A stretch of 64,000 nucleotides of DNA from Bacteroidota bacterium. Its GTDB lineage: Bacteria > Bacteroidota > Bacteroidia > 2-12-FULL-35-15. The stretch covers positions 37,704 through 101,703 of the forward strand of contig CANNHN010000005.1 of NCBI GenBank assembly GCA_947504725.1. Reading direction: 5' to 3'. Below are positions 34,137-56,326 of the stretch, one piece after another; the stretch's first letter is position 1, and each line of letters begins with the position of its first letter. A program made the position numbers and the translations under genes. Under the pieces are notes generated by a model that did not search any database, was not told where the DNA came from, and saw only the letters and a list, made by a program, of their open reading frames with translations.

Positions 34137-34601
34137 ATAAAAATTGAAGTAGGACAAAAAGCACCAGCGTTTACACTCTTGGATAGTGATAAAAATGAAG
34201 TTTCATTGGAACAATATAAAGGAAAGAATGTATTGTTATTGTTTTTTCCATTTGCATTTACGGGAACGTGCACAGCAGAGTTGTGTTCAACTCGAGACGA
34301 TATCGCTTCTTATAACAACTCGAATGCACAAGTATTCGGTATTTCTATTGATACACGTTTTACTTTGGGTAAATTCAAAGCAGAGCAAAATCTGAACTTC
34401 CCTTTGCTTTCTGATTTCAATAAAGGCGTTTCAACTGCTTATGGCTGTTTGTACGAAACGTTTTTAGGAATGAATGGAGTTTCAAAACGCTCTGCATTTG
34501 TAATTGATAAAGACGGGATTGTACGTTACGCTGAGATTTTAGATAATGCTTCTGACCTTCCAAATTTTGTTGCTGTTAAGGAAGTATTAGCAGGATTGTA
34601 G
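34137..34601 (+). CDS. 1-Cys/AhpE-like peroxiredoxin, apparently starting at ATA
   Basis: FFPFAFTGTCTAELC; frame extends upstream as ATA-KIEVGQKAPAFTL from 34137, with in-frame TAG at 34086 and no ATG/GTG/TTG before 34179. Confidence 0.85.
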   Translation: MKIEVGQKAPAFTLLDSDKNEVSLEQYKGKNVLLLFFPFAFTGTCTAELCSTRDDIASYNNSNAQVFGISIDTRFTLGKFKAEQNLNFPLLSDFNKGVSTAYGCLYETFLGMNGVSKRSAFVIDKDGIVRYAEILDNASDLPNFVAVKEVLAGL

Positions 34602-34635
34602 ACCTCACCCCTAACCCCTCTCCAAAGGAGAGGGG
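34601..34635. repeat. REP-like palindrome, CCCTCTCC/GGAGAGGG class
   Basis: GACCTCACCCCTAACCCCTCTCCAAAGGAGAGGGG; near-identical inverted copy at 54726-54757. Confidence 0.8.
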
Positions 34636-34769
34636 TATTTCTCCTTAATTGTGATTTGTTTTTATAATCATGATAATAACTTCTAACTTCTGATTAGTAG
34701 TCACAAAAGTTGTGAAACGGACAACATAAATATTACTTTCAATTTTATTGCGAAGGGAATTCTTCACCA

Positions 34770-34807: not shown

Positions 34808-35524
34808 TTACATCAACATAATCGCTGTACCAGCACCCAATAAAATCATCACAAATTTTATGAGGTTGAAACGGTGATTTTCACTTGATTCGAAAAGGAT
34901 GGTGGTGGAGATGTGTAAGAAAATACCTACTACCACCGCCATTATTTTATCGAAGTAAATTGATAAATCCAAAATCATGTTTTGTCCGATGGCGTAACTG
35001 ATGAATGTTCCCAAAGGAGTAACCAGCGCAAAAACGACAAGCCATATTACTGCATTTCTTTTGCTAATATGAGATGCCAATAACATCGTCATTAATGCCA
35101 CTGCAATTGGAATGTTGTGCATTACAATGCCAATTAGTAAAGAGTTGTGTGAGTTGGCTTCTGTAGCTGCCAAAGGCATGCCTTCTAAAAACGAGTGAAT
35201 GGAAAGACCAATCATCATCGCGAAAGGAAATGCATTCTGATGATGATCGTGTTTGTGCACATGAATATGTCCGTGCTCAATTCCCTCTGAGAAAAACTCC
35301 AACAAAATCTGAGCAAAAAATCCAATTAAAATGTAGATGCCGACATTCTCTGTTCCAGACGAATAGATTTCGGGAATAAGATGCAAAACGCTTATCGCGA
35401 AAAGGAATGCTCCACTAAAAGAAAGTAAAAGTTTTAAATTTTTACTACTAATGTTAATGAATAGCACACTCACTCCGCTAATGATAACAGATAAAAAAAG
35501 AATGATGTACATTAAATAATTCAT
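34808..35524 (-). CDS. ZIP family metal transporter
   Basis: LHLIPE, His-rich loop HGHIHVHKHDHH, HSFLEGMP, HNIP, GIFLHI. Confidence 0.92.
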   Translation of the reverse strand: MNYLMYIILFLSVIISGVSVLFINISSKNLKLLLSFSGAFLFAISVLHLIPEIYSSGTENVGIYILIGFFAQILLEFFSEGIEHGHIHVHKHDHHQNAFPFAMMIGLSIHSFLEGMPLAATEANSHNSLLIGIVMHNIPIAVALMTMLLASHISKRNAVIWLVVFALVTPLGTFISYAIGQNMILDLSIYFDKIMAVVVGIFLHISTTILFESSENHRFNLIKFVMILLGAGTAIMLM

Positions 35525-49611: not shown

Positions 49612-49684
49612 AAAAGCATCCTGAAATTTCAGAATGCTTTTCTCTCTCTAAAACACACCTGGTTAGACTTCTTAACCAGGTGTG
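49612..49684 (-). terminator. Tandem hairpins downstream of the T9SS cargo gene
   Basis: CACACCTGGTTA-N7-TAACCAGGTGTG (49654-49684) and AAAAGCAT...ATGCTTTT with an A-tract. Confidence 0.65.
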
Positions 49685-49698
49685 AGTAACAAAACAAA

Positions 49699-50592
49699 CT
49701 ATTGAATTATGAATTTTCCTTTAGATAGTATGCTGTTGAAGCTATTTACTTGATAGATGTAATTGCCTTTTGATAGAGTGCCTTCCTCTATTATTACTTT
49801 GTTGCTAGTCAGATTCCCGATTTCTATCACTTTTTTACCCGACATATCAAATATGCTTACAATTGCCGACTCTAACTGCTCAAAATTAGTATCTATTACT
49901 AAAGTTGCAGAACCTGTAAATGGATTTGGGAAAACGGTGGATGATAACAATGAGTTTGCATTTTCTATAATCGACATAGGTGTTTCAGGTATGTTGATTC
50001 TGTCGATATACAAAGTTGGTAGCTCCCAAGTAGAGTCGTTCCACATATAATATTTGCTAGAATTGAACATAATAATGATAGAATCAGGCGTTACTCCTGG
50101 CATTAAGTCGTTGATGTTTACTGTAAACGAAGTATAGCTTGCTGTTGCAGGCAAAGTTTTTACCGAATAAGCAACAGTATCGCGCGACATCGTCAAGGTA
50201 TTGTAACGTTTTAAAACAACTGTAACTTCTGCAGAATCTCCTGTGCCCTGATCGTTGTATTTATAAAACCCTGAAAATGTAGTAGGTTTTGAAGTAAAAG
50301 GTGTTCCTGATTCCATAAAACTGCCATAATCCAAAGGAGGTTGACCATTTACCATAACTCCTGGAGCAATTCCGCAGGCAAACCATCCTTGAATTTTTGT
50401 TGCGTATGTACCTTGGAAAGCATCTGTAGTTTGTTTTACAGTATTGCAATAAAATGGCCACCAGTTAGTAGGAACAGTATCTGGCGAATAAGAACTTGTA
50501 GTAGTCCAACTTTCAAACCCCGGGTTCGATAGTGTTTGTCAATTCATACTTAAGCCTGCTAAAAGTAAGAATGCAATTAGTGATTTTCTCAT
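49699..50592 (-). pseudogene. T9SS type A cargo protein (PCMD-like domain + CTD) interrupted by an in-frame TGA
   Basis: MRKSLIAFLLLAGLSMN*(TGA 50541-50539)QTLSNPGFESW... continues in frame into the track ORF 50355; CTD VFPNPF...IFDMSGK...LSKGNYIY...GKFIIQ; -7 box TACATTTG at 50622-50629. Confidence 0.8.
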
Positions 50593-50708: not shown

Positions 50709-51908
50709 ATGAAGGACGAAAACGACATAAAGATGATTGCCAAAACCAATTTTGGTTTGGAGGAATTATTATCACAAGAATTACAACGACTAGGTGCAAA
50801 AAATGTAGAAATACACAATCGTGCCGTTAGTTTTACGGGCGACAAAGGTTTTATGTATAAAGCCAATTTATGTTGTAGAGTGGCTCTAAGAATTTTAGTT
50901 CCGTTTAAATCGTTTAAAGTAAGTGACGAAAAATCATTGTATGTAGGAATGCAATCTATCAACTGGGAAGATTACATGGAAGTAACAGATACAATTGCAA
51001 TCGATACAGTTTTAAGTTCAGAATTATTTACACACTCGCAATACATTTCGCAAAAAGCAAAAGATGCAATTGTGGATCAGTTTAGAGCAAAACATGGCGA
51101 ACGTCCTTCCGTGGATTTGGATAGACCAACGTTGAGAATTAATCTTCACATAGTTGGTGATACATGCACAGTTGCTTTGGATAGCTCAGGAGAATCCTTA
51201 CACAAACGTGGTTATAGAGATAAAACAAATTTAGCTCCTATCAATGAGGTGCTCGCTGCTGGATTGGTTTTGCTAACGGGTTGGGACAAGCGCACAAATT
51301 TTATTGATCCGATGTGTGGCTCTGGAACTATTTTAATTGAAGCGGCATTGATTGCAAATAATATTCCCGCAGGATACTTTCGTGAAGAGTTTGGATTTCA
51401 ACGTTGGAATAAATTTATGCCTTATGAGGAAGAATTATGGAACACCATTTTTGATTCCGCAGTAAATAAAATTACGAATCACGAACAAAAAATTTTAGGT
51501 GGTGAACTTTCTCCTAACGTTGCAAAAAAGGCAAAAGAAAATATCAAGTTCGCAAAGGTAGATGATATTGTTTCTATCAAAAATGTAGACATGAAAGATT
51601 TTGAAGTTCCTGCTGGAAGAGGTGTTGTTATTATTAATCCACCATACGGTGAACGTATGGATAAGGATAATATTGATGAGCTTTATAAAATGATGGGCGA
51701 TACGTTCAAGAAAAATTTTGCAGGTTACGATTGTTGGATACTAAGTTCAAACATGGAAGCATTCAAACATGTTGGATTGCGTCCTTCACGAAAAATCCAA
51801 TTGTATAACGGACCATTAGAATGTCGTTTTATGAAATTTGAAATGTATCAAGGGACGAAAAAGATTCATAAGATGGAAGGAAGAGAACAGAATAATAATA
51901 AAGAATAA
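50709..51908 (+). CDS. THUMP-domain RNA methyltransferase (RlmL/Trm14-like)
   Basis: GLEELL..EL, DSSGESLHKRGYR, AP.NEVLAAG, DPMCGSGTI.IEAA, NPPYGER; -7 box TATCTTTG at 50696-50703 supports ATG 50709. Confidence 0.92.
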   Translation: MKDENDIKMIAKTNFGLEELLSQELQRLGAKNVEIHNRAVSFTGDKGFMYKANLCCRVALRILVPFKSFKVSDEKSLYVGMQSINWEDYMEVTDTIAIDTVLSSELFTHSQYISQKAKDAIVDQFRAKHGERPSVDLDRPTLRINLHIVGDTCTVALDSSGESLHKRGYRDKTNLAPINEVLAAGLVLLTGWDKRTNFIDPMCGSGTILIEAALIANNIPAGYFREEFGFQRWNKFMPYEEELWNTIFDSAVNKITNHEQKILGGELSPNVAKKAKENIKFAKVDDIVSIKNVDMKDFEVPAGRGVVIINPPYGERMDKDNIDELYKMMGDTFKKNFAGYDCWILSSNMEAFKHVGLRPSRKIQLYNGPLECRFMKFEMYQGTKKIHKMEGREQNNNKE

Positions 51909-53741: not shown

Positions 53742-53761
53742 TTTGTATGTATATTTGTTCA

Positions 53762-56326
53762 ATGAGTCGCACCACCTATTTTGTTGATGTTATATTGCCA
53801 CTTTCGGTTCCCAATTTGTACACCTATCGTGTGCCTTTTGAATGGAACGAGTCGATTGCAATTGGTAAAAGAGTGGTGGTGCAATTTGGCCGAGGGAAAT
53901 TATATTCTGCACTTATCCGAAGAATTCACGAAAATCCCCCAAAGCAATACGTTGCCAAATACATTGATTCTATTTTAGATGATACTCCAATCGTCAATCA
54001 AAAACAATTTGAATTGTGGGATTGGATGAGCAGTTATTATATGTGCACCATTGGTGAAGTGATGATTGCGGCTTTGCCGGGCGGATTGCGTTTATCGAGC
54101 GAAACAAAAATTTTACTGAACCAAAATTATAAAGAACAATCCGCTAGTATTGAATTAAGCGATAAAGAATATTTAATTGTTGATGCTCTCGAAATTCGAC
54201 AAGTTTTAACACTCACGGATATTTCTGGAATCATCGAACAAAAAATTGTTTATCCGATTATCAAATCACTCATCGAAAAAGGTGTTGTTGTTTTACAAGA
54301 AGAGCTGAAAGAAAAATTCAAGCCTAAGATTGAGAGCTACGTTCGGATAACAGACTTTGCCGACAATGAAGAAAATCTAAAAACCATTTTTGATGCATTG
54401 GAACGAAAAGCTCCAAAGCAATTGGATGTCGTGATGGCATACATCACATTGTCGAAGCGTTATTCCCAAGAACGTGTTGAAGTCAGGAAATCAGATATTC
54501 TGAAAATGGTGGATGGAGCTGAAGCTGCTTTGAAATCATTAGTGAAAAAAAATACGTTTGAAATGTATGAACGTGAAGTTGGACGATTGGCAAGTTTTGA
54601 AAATGAAAACAAAATTTCAAATCTGAATGAAGAACAACAAAAGGTCTTGGAGTCAATCAATCTTCAGTTTTCTGGAAAGGCAAATCTTGATGGAGAATCT
54701 AAAAAAATAGTAAGCAACGAAAACTCCCTCTCCTTAGGAGAGGGCAGGGGTGAGGTCGATGTAGTATTGTTACACGGAGTTACCTCCTCGGGCAAAACAG
54801 AAATTTACGTAAAACTAATTGAACAAGCCATTGCAGAAGGAAAGCAAGTTTTGTATTTGCTTCCTGAAATTGCATTGACAACACAAATTATAAATCGTTT
54901 AAGAAAATATTTTGGCGAAGCTGTGGGTGTTTATCATAGTAAGTTCAATGAGAACGAAAGAGTAGAAGTATGGAATAATGTACTTAATCTGAAGTCGGAT
55001 ATTTCAAATTTTAAATTGGTAATTGGAGCGCGCTCCGCATTATTTTTGCCTTTCAGCAATTTAGGATTAGTTATTGTTGACGAAGAACACGATACTTCCT
55101 TTAAACAATATGATCCCGCTCCTCGTTACAATGCGCGCGATGCAGCCATTTATTTGGCGCACATTCACAAAGCAAAAACGTTGTTAGGTTCTGCAACTCC
55201 AAGTTTGGAAAGTTATTTCAACGCTCAGGAAGGTAAATATGGTTTTGCTGAAATGACCAAACGTTTTGGTGGAATTCAAATGCCTGAAATATTAATTGCC
55301 GATGTGAAAGAAGCGACTCGAAAAAAAATGATGAAGTCGCATTTTTCGCCATTGCTTTTAGATACCGTTACTTTAGCATTAGAAAAAAAGGAACAAGTTA
55401 TATTGTTTCAAAATAGAAGAGGTTTTGCTCCTCAATTAGAATGCAATATGTGTGCTTGGGTGCCACAATGTGCGAATTGTGATGTGAGTTTAACGTATCA
55501 CAAATTAAGCAATCAGTTGCGTTGTCACTATTGTGGTTATTCGATAAAACCACCAACCAAATGTGCTGCTTGTGGTGATACCGATTTAAAGATGAAAGGT
55601 TTTGGTACCGAAAAAATTGAAGAAGAATTATCTATTTTTTATCCGAAAGCCAGAATTGCACGTATGGATTTGGATACAACTAGAAGTAAATTTGCGCATC
55701 AACACATCATCCAAGATTTTGAAGAAGGGAATATCGATATTTTGGTAGGAACACAAATGGTGACCAAAGGATTGGATTTTGATAATGTAAGCATGGTTGG
55801 CATTTTGAATGCCGACAGCATGTTGAACTTCCCTGATTTTAGATCATTTGAACGTAGCTATCAATTGATGGCCCAAGTATCGGGGAGAGCAGGACGAAAA
55901 AACAAACGCGGAAAGGTAATTATTCAATCGCAAAATCCTGAACACAGTATTATTCAAGAAGTAATTGCCAATGATTTTTTATCGATGTATACGAATCAAT
56001 TACTGGATAGAAAAAATTTCAATTACCCTCCTTACTTTAGATTGATAGAAATTACGGTGATTCATAAAGATGTAGATATGGTAAATGCGTCTGCTAAATT
56101 TTTGGCAGATGCACTAAAAAAACATTTTGCTAAACGTGTGCTCGGACCAGAGTTTCCATTGGTTTCTCGTATCCGTAATTTGTTTCATAAAAATATATTA
56201 TTAAAAGTAGAAAGAGATGCTTCGGTTGGACAAGTAAAAAAAATAGTAAGTGAATTGCTTGTGAAATTTAAATCGACCAGTGATTATAAGTCGGTGAGAG
56301 TAAATATTGATGTGGATCCAATGTAA
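53762..56326 (+). CDS. priA: Primosomal protein N' (replication restart helicase)
   Basis: HGVTSSGKTE, DEEHD.SFKQ, GSATPSLE, two CxxC zinc pairs, QVSGRAGR; -7 box TATATTTG at 53750-53757. Confidence 0.97.
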   Translation: MSRTTYFVDVILPLSVPNLYTYRVPFEWNESIAIGKRVVVQFGRGKLYSALIRRIHENPPKQYVAKYIDSILDDTPIVNQKQFELWDWMSSYYMCTIGEVMIAALPGGLRLSSETKILLNQNYKEQSASIELSDKEYLIVDALEIRQVLTLTDISGIIEQKIVYPIIKSLIEKGVVVLQEELKEKFKPKIESYVRITDFADNEENLKTIFDALERKAPKQLDVVMAYITLSKRYSQERVEVRKSDILKMVDGAEAALKSLVKKNTFEMYEREVGRLASFENENKISNLNEEQQKVLESINLQFSGKANLDGESKKIVSNENSLSLGEGRGEVDVVLLHGVTSSGKTEIYVKLIEQAIAEGKQVLYLLPEIALTTQIINRLRKYFGEAVGVYHSKFNENERVEVWNNVLNLKSDISNFKLVIGARSALFLPFSNLGLVIVDEEHDTSFKQYDPAPRYNARDAAIYLAHIHKAKTLLGSATPSLESYFNAQEGKYGFAEMTKRFGGIQMPEILIADVKEATRKKMMKSHFSPLLLDTVTLALEKKEQVILFQNRRGFAPQLECNMCAWVPQCANCDVSLTYHKLSNQLRCHYCGYSIKPPTKCAACGDTDLKMKGFGTEKIEEELSIFYPKARIARMDLDTTRSKFAHQHIIQDFEEGNIDILVGTQMVTKGLDFDNVSMVGILNADSMLNFPDFRSFERSYQLMAQVSGRAGRKNKRGKVIIQSQNPEHSIIQEVIANDFLSMYTNQLLDRKNFNYPPYFRLIEITVIHKDVDMVNASAKFLADALKKHFAKRVLGPEFPLVSRIRNLFHKNILLKVERDASVGQVKKIVSELLVKFKSTSDYKSVRVNIDVDPM
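54724..54757. repeat. REP-like palindrome inside the priA reading frame
   Basis: CTCCCTCTCCTTAGGAGAGGGCAGGGGTGAGGTC, read as SLSLGEGRGEV; inverted homolog of 34601-34635. Confidence 0.8.

Follow-up and report, generated by a model that had tools for sequence, protein, structure and literature searches.

The window analysed here, a stretch of 64,000 nucleotides, is part of a metagenome-assembled genome (MAG) of a freshwater, free-living member of Bacteroidia (hereafter G000; 43 contigs, 3.40 Mb, 34.5% G+C, 99.6% complete) and carries priA, the gene for the replication-restart helicase PriA. Inside priA, just ahead of the Walker A motif, lies a short palindromic repeat that is translated in frame and has a second copy between two genes of the same window. 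The original prediction, made from the sequence alone, had read the priA copy as a repeat-derived peptide gain of the kind known from Rickettsia palindromic elements (RPEs). The features concerned are listed below; positions without a contig number are those of the window.

53747-56326, forward strand: priA, an intact open reading frame (ORF) encoding replication-restart helicase PriA (859 aa).
54671-54757, forward strand: lineage-specific insert of 29 residues in PriA (aa 309-337, SGKANLDGESKKIVSNENSLSLGEGRGEV), delimited by ortholog alignments and AlphaFold2.
54718-54722, forward strand: CGAAA, a degenerate CG[GA]AN box; many units have this box 5-12 nt ahead of their hairpin.
54726-54744, forward strand: unit hairpin composed of the C-arm CCCTCTCC (54726-54733), the loop TTA (54734-54736) and the G-arm GGAGAGGG (54737-54744), with a perfect 8-bp stem that fits the family logo.
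54747-54757, forward strand: unit tail GGGGTGAGG(TC), rich in purines, which repeats the G-arm in mirror image and is, by the mirror-register triplet count, a potential third strand.
34601-34636, reverse strand: intergenic copy (tail, spacer and 10-bp hairpin) between convergent genes, from reading of the sequence.

The priA copy (54726-54757) reads CCCTCTCC-TTA-GGAGAGGG-CA-GGGGTGAGG-TC (32 nt), and the reverse complement of 34601-34635 reads CCCCTCTCC-TTT-GGAGAGGGG-TTA-GGGGTGAGG-TC (35 nt). The three blocks that had been claimed to be identical in both copies were all identical on direct reading, and the claim that one copy is the reverse complement of the other held approximately but not exactly, the difference being one loop base and three extra bases. 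Chance matches in the window were estimated from 100 shuffles: CCCTCTCCNNNGGAGAGGG, with one mismatch or fewer, gave 2 matches (0.00 expected) and AGGGGTGAGGTC gave 2 (0.07 expected), and the pattern searches of the window returned just the priA and intergenic sites. The priA segment agreed with the strict family pattern at 30/30 positions (chance expectation, 0). Folded as single-stranded DNA, the hairpin of the priA copy had an energy of -7.9 kcal/mol and that of the intergenic copy -11 kcal/mol (z=-3.4). The codons at 54725-54757 encode SLSLGEGRGEV, a peptide rich in Gly, Ser and Glu that forms residues 327-337 of PriA, immediately ahead of DVVLLHGVTSSGKT; the frame given in the original prediction was correct, and the segment matched the family consensus at all conserved positions. 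The intergenic copy is flanked by the ORFs at 34179-34601 (forward strand) and 34808-35524 (reverse strand). The first of these is a peroxiredoxin-like gene, the stop codon of which (34599-34601) overlaps the first base of the unit, and several other units in the genome abut or extend ORF ends, e.g., the C-terminal tail of a YyaL-like protein at 38493-38522 of contig C12.

In the whole 3.4-Mb genome, about 40 oriented copies of a dispersed unit with the consensus CCCTCTCC-N3-GGAGAGGG-N2-GGGGTGAGGTC were found. The unit is approximately 33-48 nt long and consists of an optional CGGAG-like box, a C/G hairpin of 8-10 bp, a spacer of 2-3 nt and a purine tail that mirrors the G-arm; its core in the logo of the copies (approximately 33 nt) reads (CT)CCCTCTCC, a loop of 3-4 nt, GGAGAGGG, two bases, and GGGGTGAGGT(C). 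A CG[GA]AN box was present 5-12 nt upstream in 17/40 units, compared with 6.4% of random 16-mers (p=1e-10). With G.G-C, A.A-T and T.A-T taken as the allowed triplets of the purine motif, 26/37 genomic units had 8/8 allowed triplets in the mirror (antiparallel) register, whereas shifted or parallel registers had 3-4. Five of the six reading frames of the unit consensus are free of stop codons, and the closed frame reads GGGG-TGA-GG. About a quarter of the copies in G000 are intragenic, every one of them in frame. Strict units numbered between 0 and 21 per genome within the genus, with 17 in G000 and none genome-wide in its closest relative (G005), a contrast that may be due to units being gained rapidly or lost wholesale, or to an exchange of alleles. 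The PriA tree and the LeuRS tree both place G005 as sister to G000, and the G005 alleles were empty at all four sites checked.

The PriA of G000 matched the solved PriA structures (6dcr/4nl4/6dgd) with an E-value of 2e-112 and is encoded by a single-copy gene according to a whole-genome comparison, in which the sole other match to PriA was weak (E=8.5e-7) and confined to aa 626-730, a region also matched by UvrB structures. The Walker A motif (G344-T351; P-loop GVTSSGKT, 344-351), the DEEH motif (445-448) and the eight zinc-binding cysteines were invariant across 44 orthologs. An AlphaFold2 model based on these 44 orthologs had a mean predicted local distance difference test (pLDDT) score of 78 and a predicted template modelling score (pTM) of 0.72. 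In the model, residues 312-333 have pLDDT values below 50 and lie between an intact helix (295-309) and the strand (339-343) that leads to the P-loop. The unit in PriA is thus predicted to form a tolerated, disordered surface loop.

Orthologs of PriA were collected from 40 related genomes and 78 further public loci, all from MAGs of uncultured freshwater Bacteroidia. Outside the genus, the helix ends in ...F and is followed by 3-4 residues and then by (K/E)(D/E)VVLLHG, with the insert in none of the aligned orthologs. Within the genus, this loop is a hypervariable linker of 0 to approximately 60 residues, of low complexity and unalignable. The closest relative G005 (L002/L080; support 99 in the PriA tree) reads QFS-SENK-DVVLLHG, without the insert. 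A homologous insert ending in the unit was found in L079, L081, L126 (identical with G022), L124 and L150, and altogether the insert with the unit was present in six separately deposited MAG assemblies, with the frame kept throughout. The L079 and L126 orthologs have GCGAGG at the position of the CGAAA box of priA, the stem in L124 is broken by the change of one base, and in L150 a second small palindrome is nested within the hairpin. In a distant species (L094), STPSPLGEGRGEV is present in the PriA loop, which has cleanly gained 36 nt, and the unit is absent from the sister species, L092 (support 100); judged from the sequences, L094 appears to have gained the unit separately. The distribution of the unit over the PriA tree requires a minimum of three state changes.

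As orthologs either lacked the segment or carried the segment together with the palindrome, and as the insert was missing from the closest and from the extra-genus orthologs, the claim of an in-frame gain like that of RPEs was supported. Both refuting conditions named in the original prediction, namely close orthologs with the segment but no palindrome and a repeat without further genomic copies, turned out not to hold. The claim of an inserted stretch ahead of the Walker A motif was borne out as to the insertion; the repeat-derived part was narrowed to just the last 11-15 codons of the 29, the remainder being hypervariable linker. Coincidence or an assembly artefact, by which the segment would be an ordinary low-complexity linker of PriA, is scarcely credible: the loop is indeed hypervariable and of low complexity throughout the genus, and the data all come from MAGs, which are possibly chimeric, but the 30/30 match to the strict pattern, the occurrence in six separately deposited assemblies and the preserved frame speak against it. 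The small nested palindromes, which encode CHPERSRMG or VILSGVEG, were seen within the unit hairpin not only in the PriA loop of L150 but also at the second LeuRS site of L040 and L049, which suggests that the units themselves serve as insertion targets for other hairpin repeats.

The unit and the linker upstream of it were then compared at the nucleotide level. Between G000 and L079, the identity was 88% for the gene, 70% for third codon positions, 65% (35/54) for the 54-nt upstream linker and 94% (31/33) for the unit, which was significantly better kept than the linker (Fisher p=0.002). Between G000 and L124, the respective values were 81%, 60%, 89% (48/54) and 94% (31/33), i.e., the insert was more alike than the surrounding gene, and this sequence comparison suggests that lineages have exchanged the insert. 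A unit kept at the DNA level and an exchanged insert would both be expected from gene conversion that homogenises the copies or from recombination that spreads occupied alleles. That the unit is conserved as DNA suggests either that it is homogenised with other copies or that the DNA structure is under selection. The PriA and LeuRS trees disagree on the placement of G022; because of this conflict, and because the insert of L124 is closer to that of G000 than the gene is, gain, loss and lateral exchange are indistinguishable for the priA insert.

A rival explanation is that the unit is retained in priA for a function, for example as a DNA or RNA structure that modulates local recombination or the expression of priA, or as a hinge that gives the helicase useful flexibility. 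Its nucleotide conservation is well above that of the adjacent linker and of synonymous sites, and triplex motifs of this type have been linked to local genome instability in E. coli (PMC4666352). We nevertheless consider a function improbable: the unit is absent from the closest relative and from most of the genus, its peptide is predicted to be disordered, the stem is broken in L124 and the hairpin of L150 contains the nested palindrome, and gene conversion among about 40 copies would give the same conservation.

Other proteins of G000 were surveyed by determining the ORF spanning every copy and by a six-frame proteome search for the encoded peptides. At least 11 in-frame copies were found in 9 proteins including PriA, in both orientations and in three different frames; for PriA, LeuRS and GpmI, comparison with orthologs or structures confirmed that the copies are insertions. 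The copies outside PriA are as follows.

LeuRS (gene at contig C9, 49163-51946), three sites (units at 49665-49694, 50013-50045 and 50756-50786): SLSFGEGRGEV; APSPSGEGRGEA; PSPSGEGRGEV.
NuoD, N-terminal extension: SLSLGEGRGEV.
UvrA: PSPLERAGVM.
GpmI: DLTPTLSKGDG, a 12-residue insertion relative to structure 1ejj.
RsmB-like methyltransferase: YLTLALSKGEG.
YyaL-like protein, C-terminal tail: YLTPTLSKGEG.
ORF at contig C2, 29197-29799, C-terminal tail: DLTPTLSKGEG.
ORF at contig C1, 376042, reverse strand, 436 aa with an apparent signal peptide: SLPFGEGRGG(V).

In the last of these, the unit peptide directly follows the hydrophobic core of the apparent N-terminal signal peptide (MRKLYIFLLLIF...), and it might alter or form the cleavage region.

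The three LeuRS sites were followed through a genus-wide alignment and the LeuRS tree. G000 has units at all three sites and its sister G005 at none; in other sister species the loops are empty or contain decayed units, a different variant or, at site 2, a full cassette with a DUF559 ORF. At site 1, the occupied allele consists of the whole extended unit TTTCGGAGCGGCT...GGTGAGGTCTGG, 48 nt replacing 12 nt (net +36), and at site 3 two different unit variants occur in different species. At site 2, where G000 has a lone unit, five sister species (G008, G024, G016, G006 and G020) have an in-frame insert of 150-190 residues, the ends of which are the priA-type unit in the form of perfect terminal inverted repeats. 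The left end reads CCTCACCCC-TAA-CCCCTCTCC-AAA-GGAGAGGGG and the right end CCCCTCTCC-TTT-GGAGAGGGG-NN-GGGGGTGAGG, and the ORF between them (approximately 110 aa) matched Pfam DUF559 with an E-value of 2e-34. Two pairs of sisters in the LeuRS tree contrast a full cassette with a reduced allele, namely G008 with G022 (lone unit) and G020 with G042 (remnant).

G000 itself has three DUF559 genes, each located between G/C hairpin-plus-tail repeats in inverted orientation. One is part of an in-frame cassette of approximately 150 aa in acetyl-CoA synthetase (Acs; contig C7, 100645-102990, 782 aa; DUF559 at 101563-101865), with variant hairpin-plus-tail units of the CCCTTCCC/GGGAAGGG type at its ends, and G018 (L078) has a cassette at the same Acs site. 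The other two are free-standing (contig C15, 27460-27783, and contig C3, 88032-88340) and lie between other G/C hairpin variants. Matching hairpins on both sides of the DUF559 core were found in 7/10 related loci with the core motif (12 loci examined), at about -200 to -310 and +185 to +220 nt from it. Cassette hosts include TsaB-like and MetH-like proteins as well as Acs, and many DUF559 matches in the class sit within long open frames (700-1900 aa). In this small sample, all in-frame cassettes observed (approximately 6 events) have outward-pointing tails and three free-standing genes (C15, C3 and L077) inward-pointing ones, the order in the free-standing type being box-hairpin-tail, gene, tail-hairpin-box. 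The DUF559 domain matched the endonuclease-like structure 3hrl (E=2e-17), and a survey of PD-(D/E)XK enzymes (PMC3424549) grouped Vsr with DUF559 and DUF2726 in a single clade, one member of which is a group I intron homing endonuclease. Pfam searches of the cassettes returned DUF559 and a weak MTES_1575 match alone, with no splicing domain; the cassette insert should therefore stay in the host protein.

Two arrangements of units without the nuclease gene were also observed. Inverted pairs about 70-90 nt apart with tails outward (contig C2, 60028-60171; C4, 44180-44310; C17, 32922-33073) look like cassettes from which the DUF559 ORF has been lost and which resemble miniature inverted-repeat transposable elements, and two units (contig C2, 203582-203615; C3, 246600-246634) are double-tailed and fully palindromic. 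PriA has, in addition, a second hypervariable loop (window 54990-55030, aa 416-425; pLDDT below 50 at 416-419), which in L008, L010, L013, L017, L018, L021 and L022 contains peptides such as KVQSSKF, SKLKVESS and LNFKLSNFKL. Peptides of these types recur in LeuRS loops and look as though a tandemly repeated heptamer, (AAAGTTC)n, had been translated from one strand or the other; G000 contains AAAGTTCAAAGTT at 20 sites. The heptamers look like a second repeat family in the same permissive loops.

On these grounds, the in-frame, repeat-derived loop of PriA is a real observation, and its RPE-like reading is supported. The interpretation that we prefer, with a probability of roughly 80%, is that the priA segment is a tolerated in-frame passenger derived from a dispersed unit that most likely spreads in connection with DUF559 cassettes. 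In priA, the unit is most probably harmless; it would leave helicase function undisturbed and would represent no adaptation. It would have reached PriA by the same process that brought units into loops of LeuRS, NuoD, UvrA, GpmI, the RsmB-like protein and others, and this process would most likely be tied to cassettes of the DUF559 (Vsr-like, PD-(D/E)XK) nuclease, since inverted units bracket a DUF559 ORF at the very LeuRS site at which G000 has a lone unit. Lone units would be non-autonomous partners that are copied when the nuclease triggers repair or gene conversion, or else remains after loss of the ORF; after arrival, their sequence would be homogenised against other copies or selected as DNA structure. 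Lone units are linked with DUF559 by association only, through shared ends and shared sites.

Several observations weigh against this interpretation. Relative to G005, the priA insert is not unit-sized, as 87 nt replace 12 nt, and several of the PriA and LeuRS events resemble the replacement of a few codons rather than pure insertion; neither a target-site duplication nor a target motif was found when occupied and empty alleles were compared at PriA and the three LeuRS sites. The patchy presence could in part be due to allele exchange between species and not to new insertions. At the priA locus, one unit and no ORF was found, without a bracketing DUF559 cassette, and none of the DUF559 cassettes of G000 has ends of exactly the CCCTCTCC/GGGGTGAGG variant. 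In 31 genomes, the counts of units and of DUF559 correlated weakly and not significantly (rho 0.25, range 0.25-0.33; p=0.17), in a crude test that counted a single unit variant and speaks for neither side, and G003 and G001 have 5-6 units without DUF559. Movement of a unit was not observed, the description as tolerated and not functional is drawn from disorder and variability, and every genome involved is a MAG, a type of assembly that can be chimeric.

A more direct relation to the cassettes would be that a complete DUF559 cassette once occupied the PriA loop and left the priA unit behind, the ORF and the left end having been deleted while the right-end unit and some linker stayed. At LeuRS site 2, sister species do contrast a full cassette with a lone unit (G008/G022) or a remnant (G020/G042), and the priA unit is oriented as a right cassette end and lies at the right edge of the insert. 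Against it, this loop contained neither a DUF559 ORF nor a left-end unit in any of approximately 100 PriA orthologs examined, remnants of a left end or of a DUF559 gene were likewise absent from the 54 nt preceding the priA unit, and the net gains of 36 nt in L094 and at LeuRS site 1 are unit-sized and need no cassette. Deletion from a full cassette is accordingly regarded as rather unlikely for priA.

The label "REP-like" applied to the element in the original prediction is appropriate in a loose sense. Like repetitive extragenic palindromes (REPs) and REPINs, the units are short, GC-rich, dispersed palindromes that are mostly intergenic, often form inverted pairs, vary widely in copy number among close relatives and have a proposed dedicated enzyme encoded between two repeats. 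In REPs, one end of the palindrome bears a conserved tag, GTAG or CGTC (PMC3733652). No consistent tag of either kind was present in the logo of the 40 copies, about 3 of which end in ...TCTAC, and the third, mirror-repeat block of the unit is lacking in REPs, which moreover are extragenic. The candidate enzyme also differs, being a PD-(D/E)XK (Vsr-like) nuclease here and an HUH tyrosine transposase for REPs. A search of G000 and 25 relatives for the Y1_Tnp domain (PF01797) of the REP-associated tyrosine transposase (RAYT) showed no co-occurrence with units: G000, despite its 99.6% completeness, had 0 matches, and G005 had four matches and no units. A REP/REPIN element spread by RAYT was rejected on this basis and is highly improbable.

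Besides REPs, three known systems come closest to the unit. RPEs are approximately 100-150 bp in length and belong to Alphaproteobacteria, families RPE-1 to -10 being those of Rickettsia. To our knowledge, no partner enzyme of RPEs has been described. They are dispersed palindromic repeats inserted in frame into unrelated conserved genes, where the extra peptides are compatible with fold and function (PMC10969869). The present unit is likewise dispersed, palindromic and in frame in genes for conserved proteins, but it is 33-48 nt long, has the hairpin-plus-mirror-tail layout, occurs in Bacteroidota and also ends DUF559 cassettes. It is an analogue of RPEs and not a member, set apart by size and layout.

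The layout itself, a C-rich arm, a loop of 3-6 nt, a G-rich arm, a loop of 2-3 nt and a second G-rich block mirroring the first, is that of BoxC, PIT and TMECO, which share with the unit strong differences in copy number among close relatives and the occurrence of inverted pairs. TMECO follows the pattern CCCTCNCCC-N3-6-GGGNGAGGG-N3-GGGNGAGGG (Holder et al. 2015, PMC4666352); it was reported from Proteobacteria, as always intergenic in E. coli MG1655 and as never located beside mobility genes (PMC4666352). The present unit differs from it in its stems, which are 8 nt and not 9 nt long, in its sequence, in its in-frame copies and in flanking a nuclease gene. Exact membership in TMECO was rejected, as G000 had 0 matches to the pattern, either exactly or with up to two substitutions. 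By its sequence layout, the unit is a sibling of the BoxC/PIT/TMECO motif, with a putative potential for triplex formation. The third comparison is with inteins and homing endonucleases, among them the Vsr-like family (PMC2677866; PMC3424549), with which full cassettes share an in-frame nuclease unit, a location at conserved sites of housekeeping genes and a patchy distribution. The cassettes differ in having hairpin terminal inverted repeats and no splicing domain, and the priA copy has no nuclease ORF. In the literature on DUF559, Vsr-like homing endonucleases and in-frame palindromes of Bacteroidetes, no account was found of hairpin-ended DUF559 cassettes or of in-frame triplex-type units in Bacteroidota.

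A broader interpretation reaching across phyla is put forward tentatively and is considered less likely than not. The priA loop would here be a lone end belonging to a so far unrecognised class of tiny selfish elements found in several phyla. BoxC/PIT/TMECO-type units as a class might be the ends, recognition sites and non-autonomous derivatives of DUF559 cassettes of approximately 0.45 kb, which gene conversion triggered by the nuclease would carry into surface loops of essential proteins. The cassettes would be built for translation through, with five of six frames open and read as Pro/Gly/Ser linkers, and the same gene conversion would also keep the units homogeneous. If this were true, the long-unexplained triplex-motif repeats would gain a partner enzyme, and an intein-like niche would be occupied without splicing.

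For genome annotation, the units are a hazard, as they cause spurious ORF extensions and odd low-complexity loops. They also flag loops that tolerate insertion in essential proteins. Colonisation of essential genes by in-frame palindromic repeats has been known mainly from Rickettsia. The present results extend it to free-living freshwater Bacteroidia, in which PriA and about ten other housekeeping proteins are affected and permissive loops are reused repeatedly and independently. The bracketing of a DUF559 ORF by the unit in this genus provides a testable candidate for the maker and mover of triplex-type repeats, and the wider phenomenon merits experimental follow-up.

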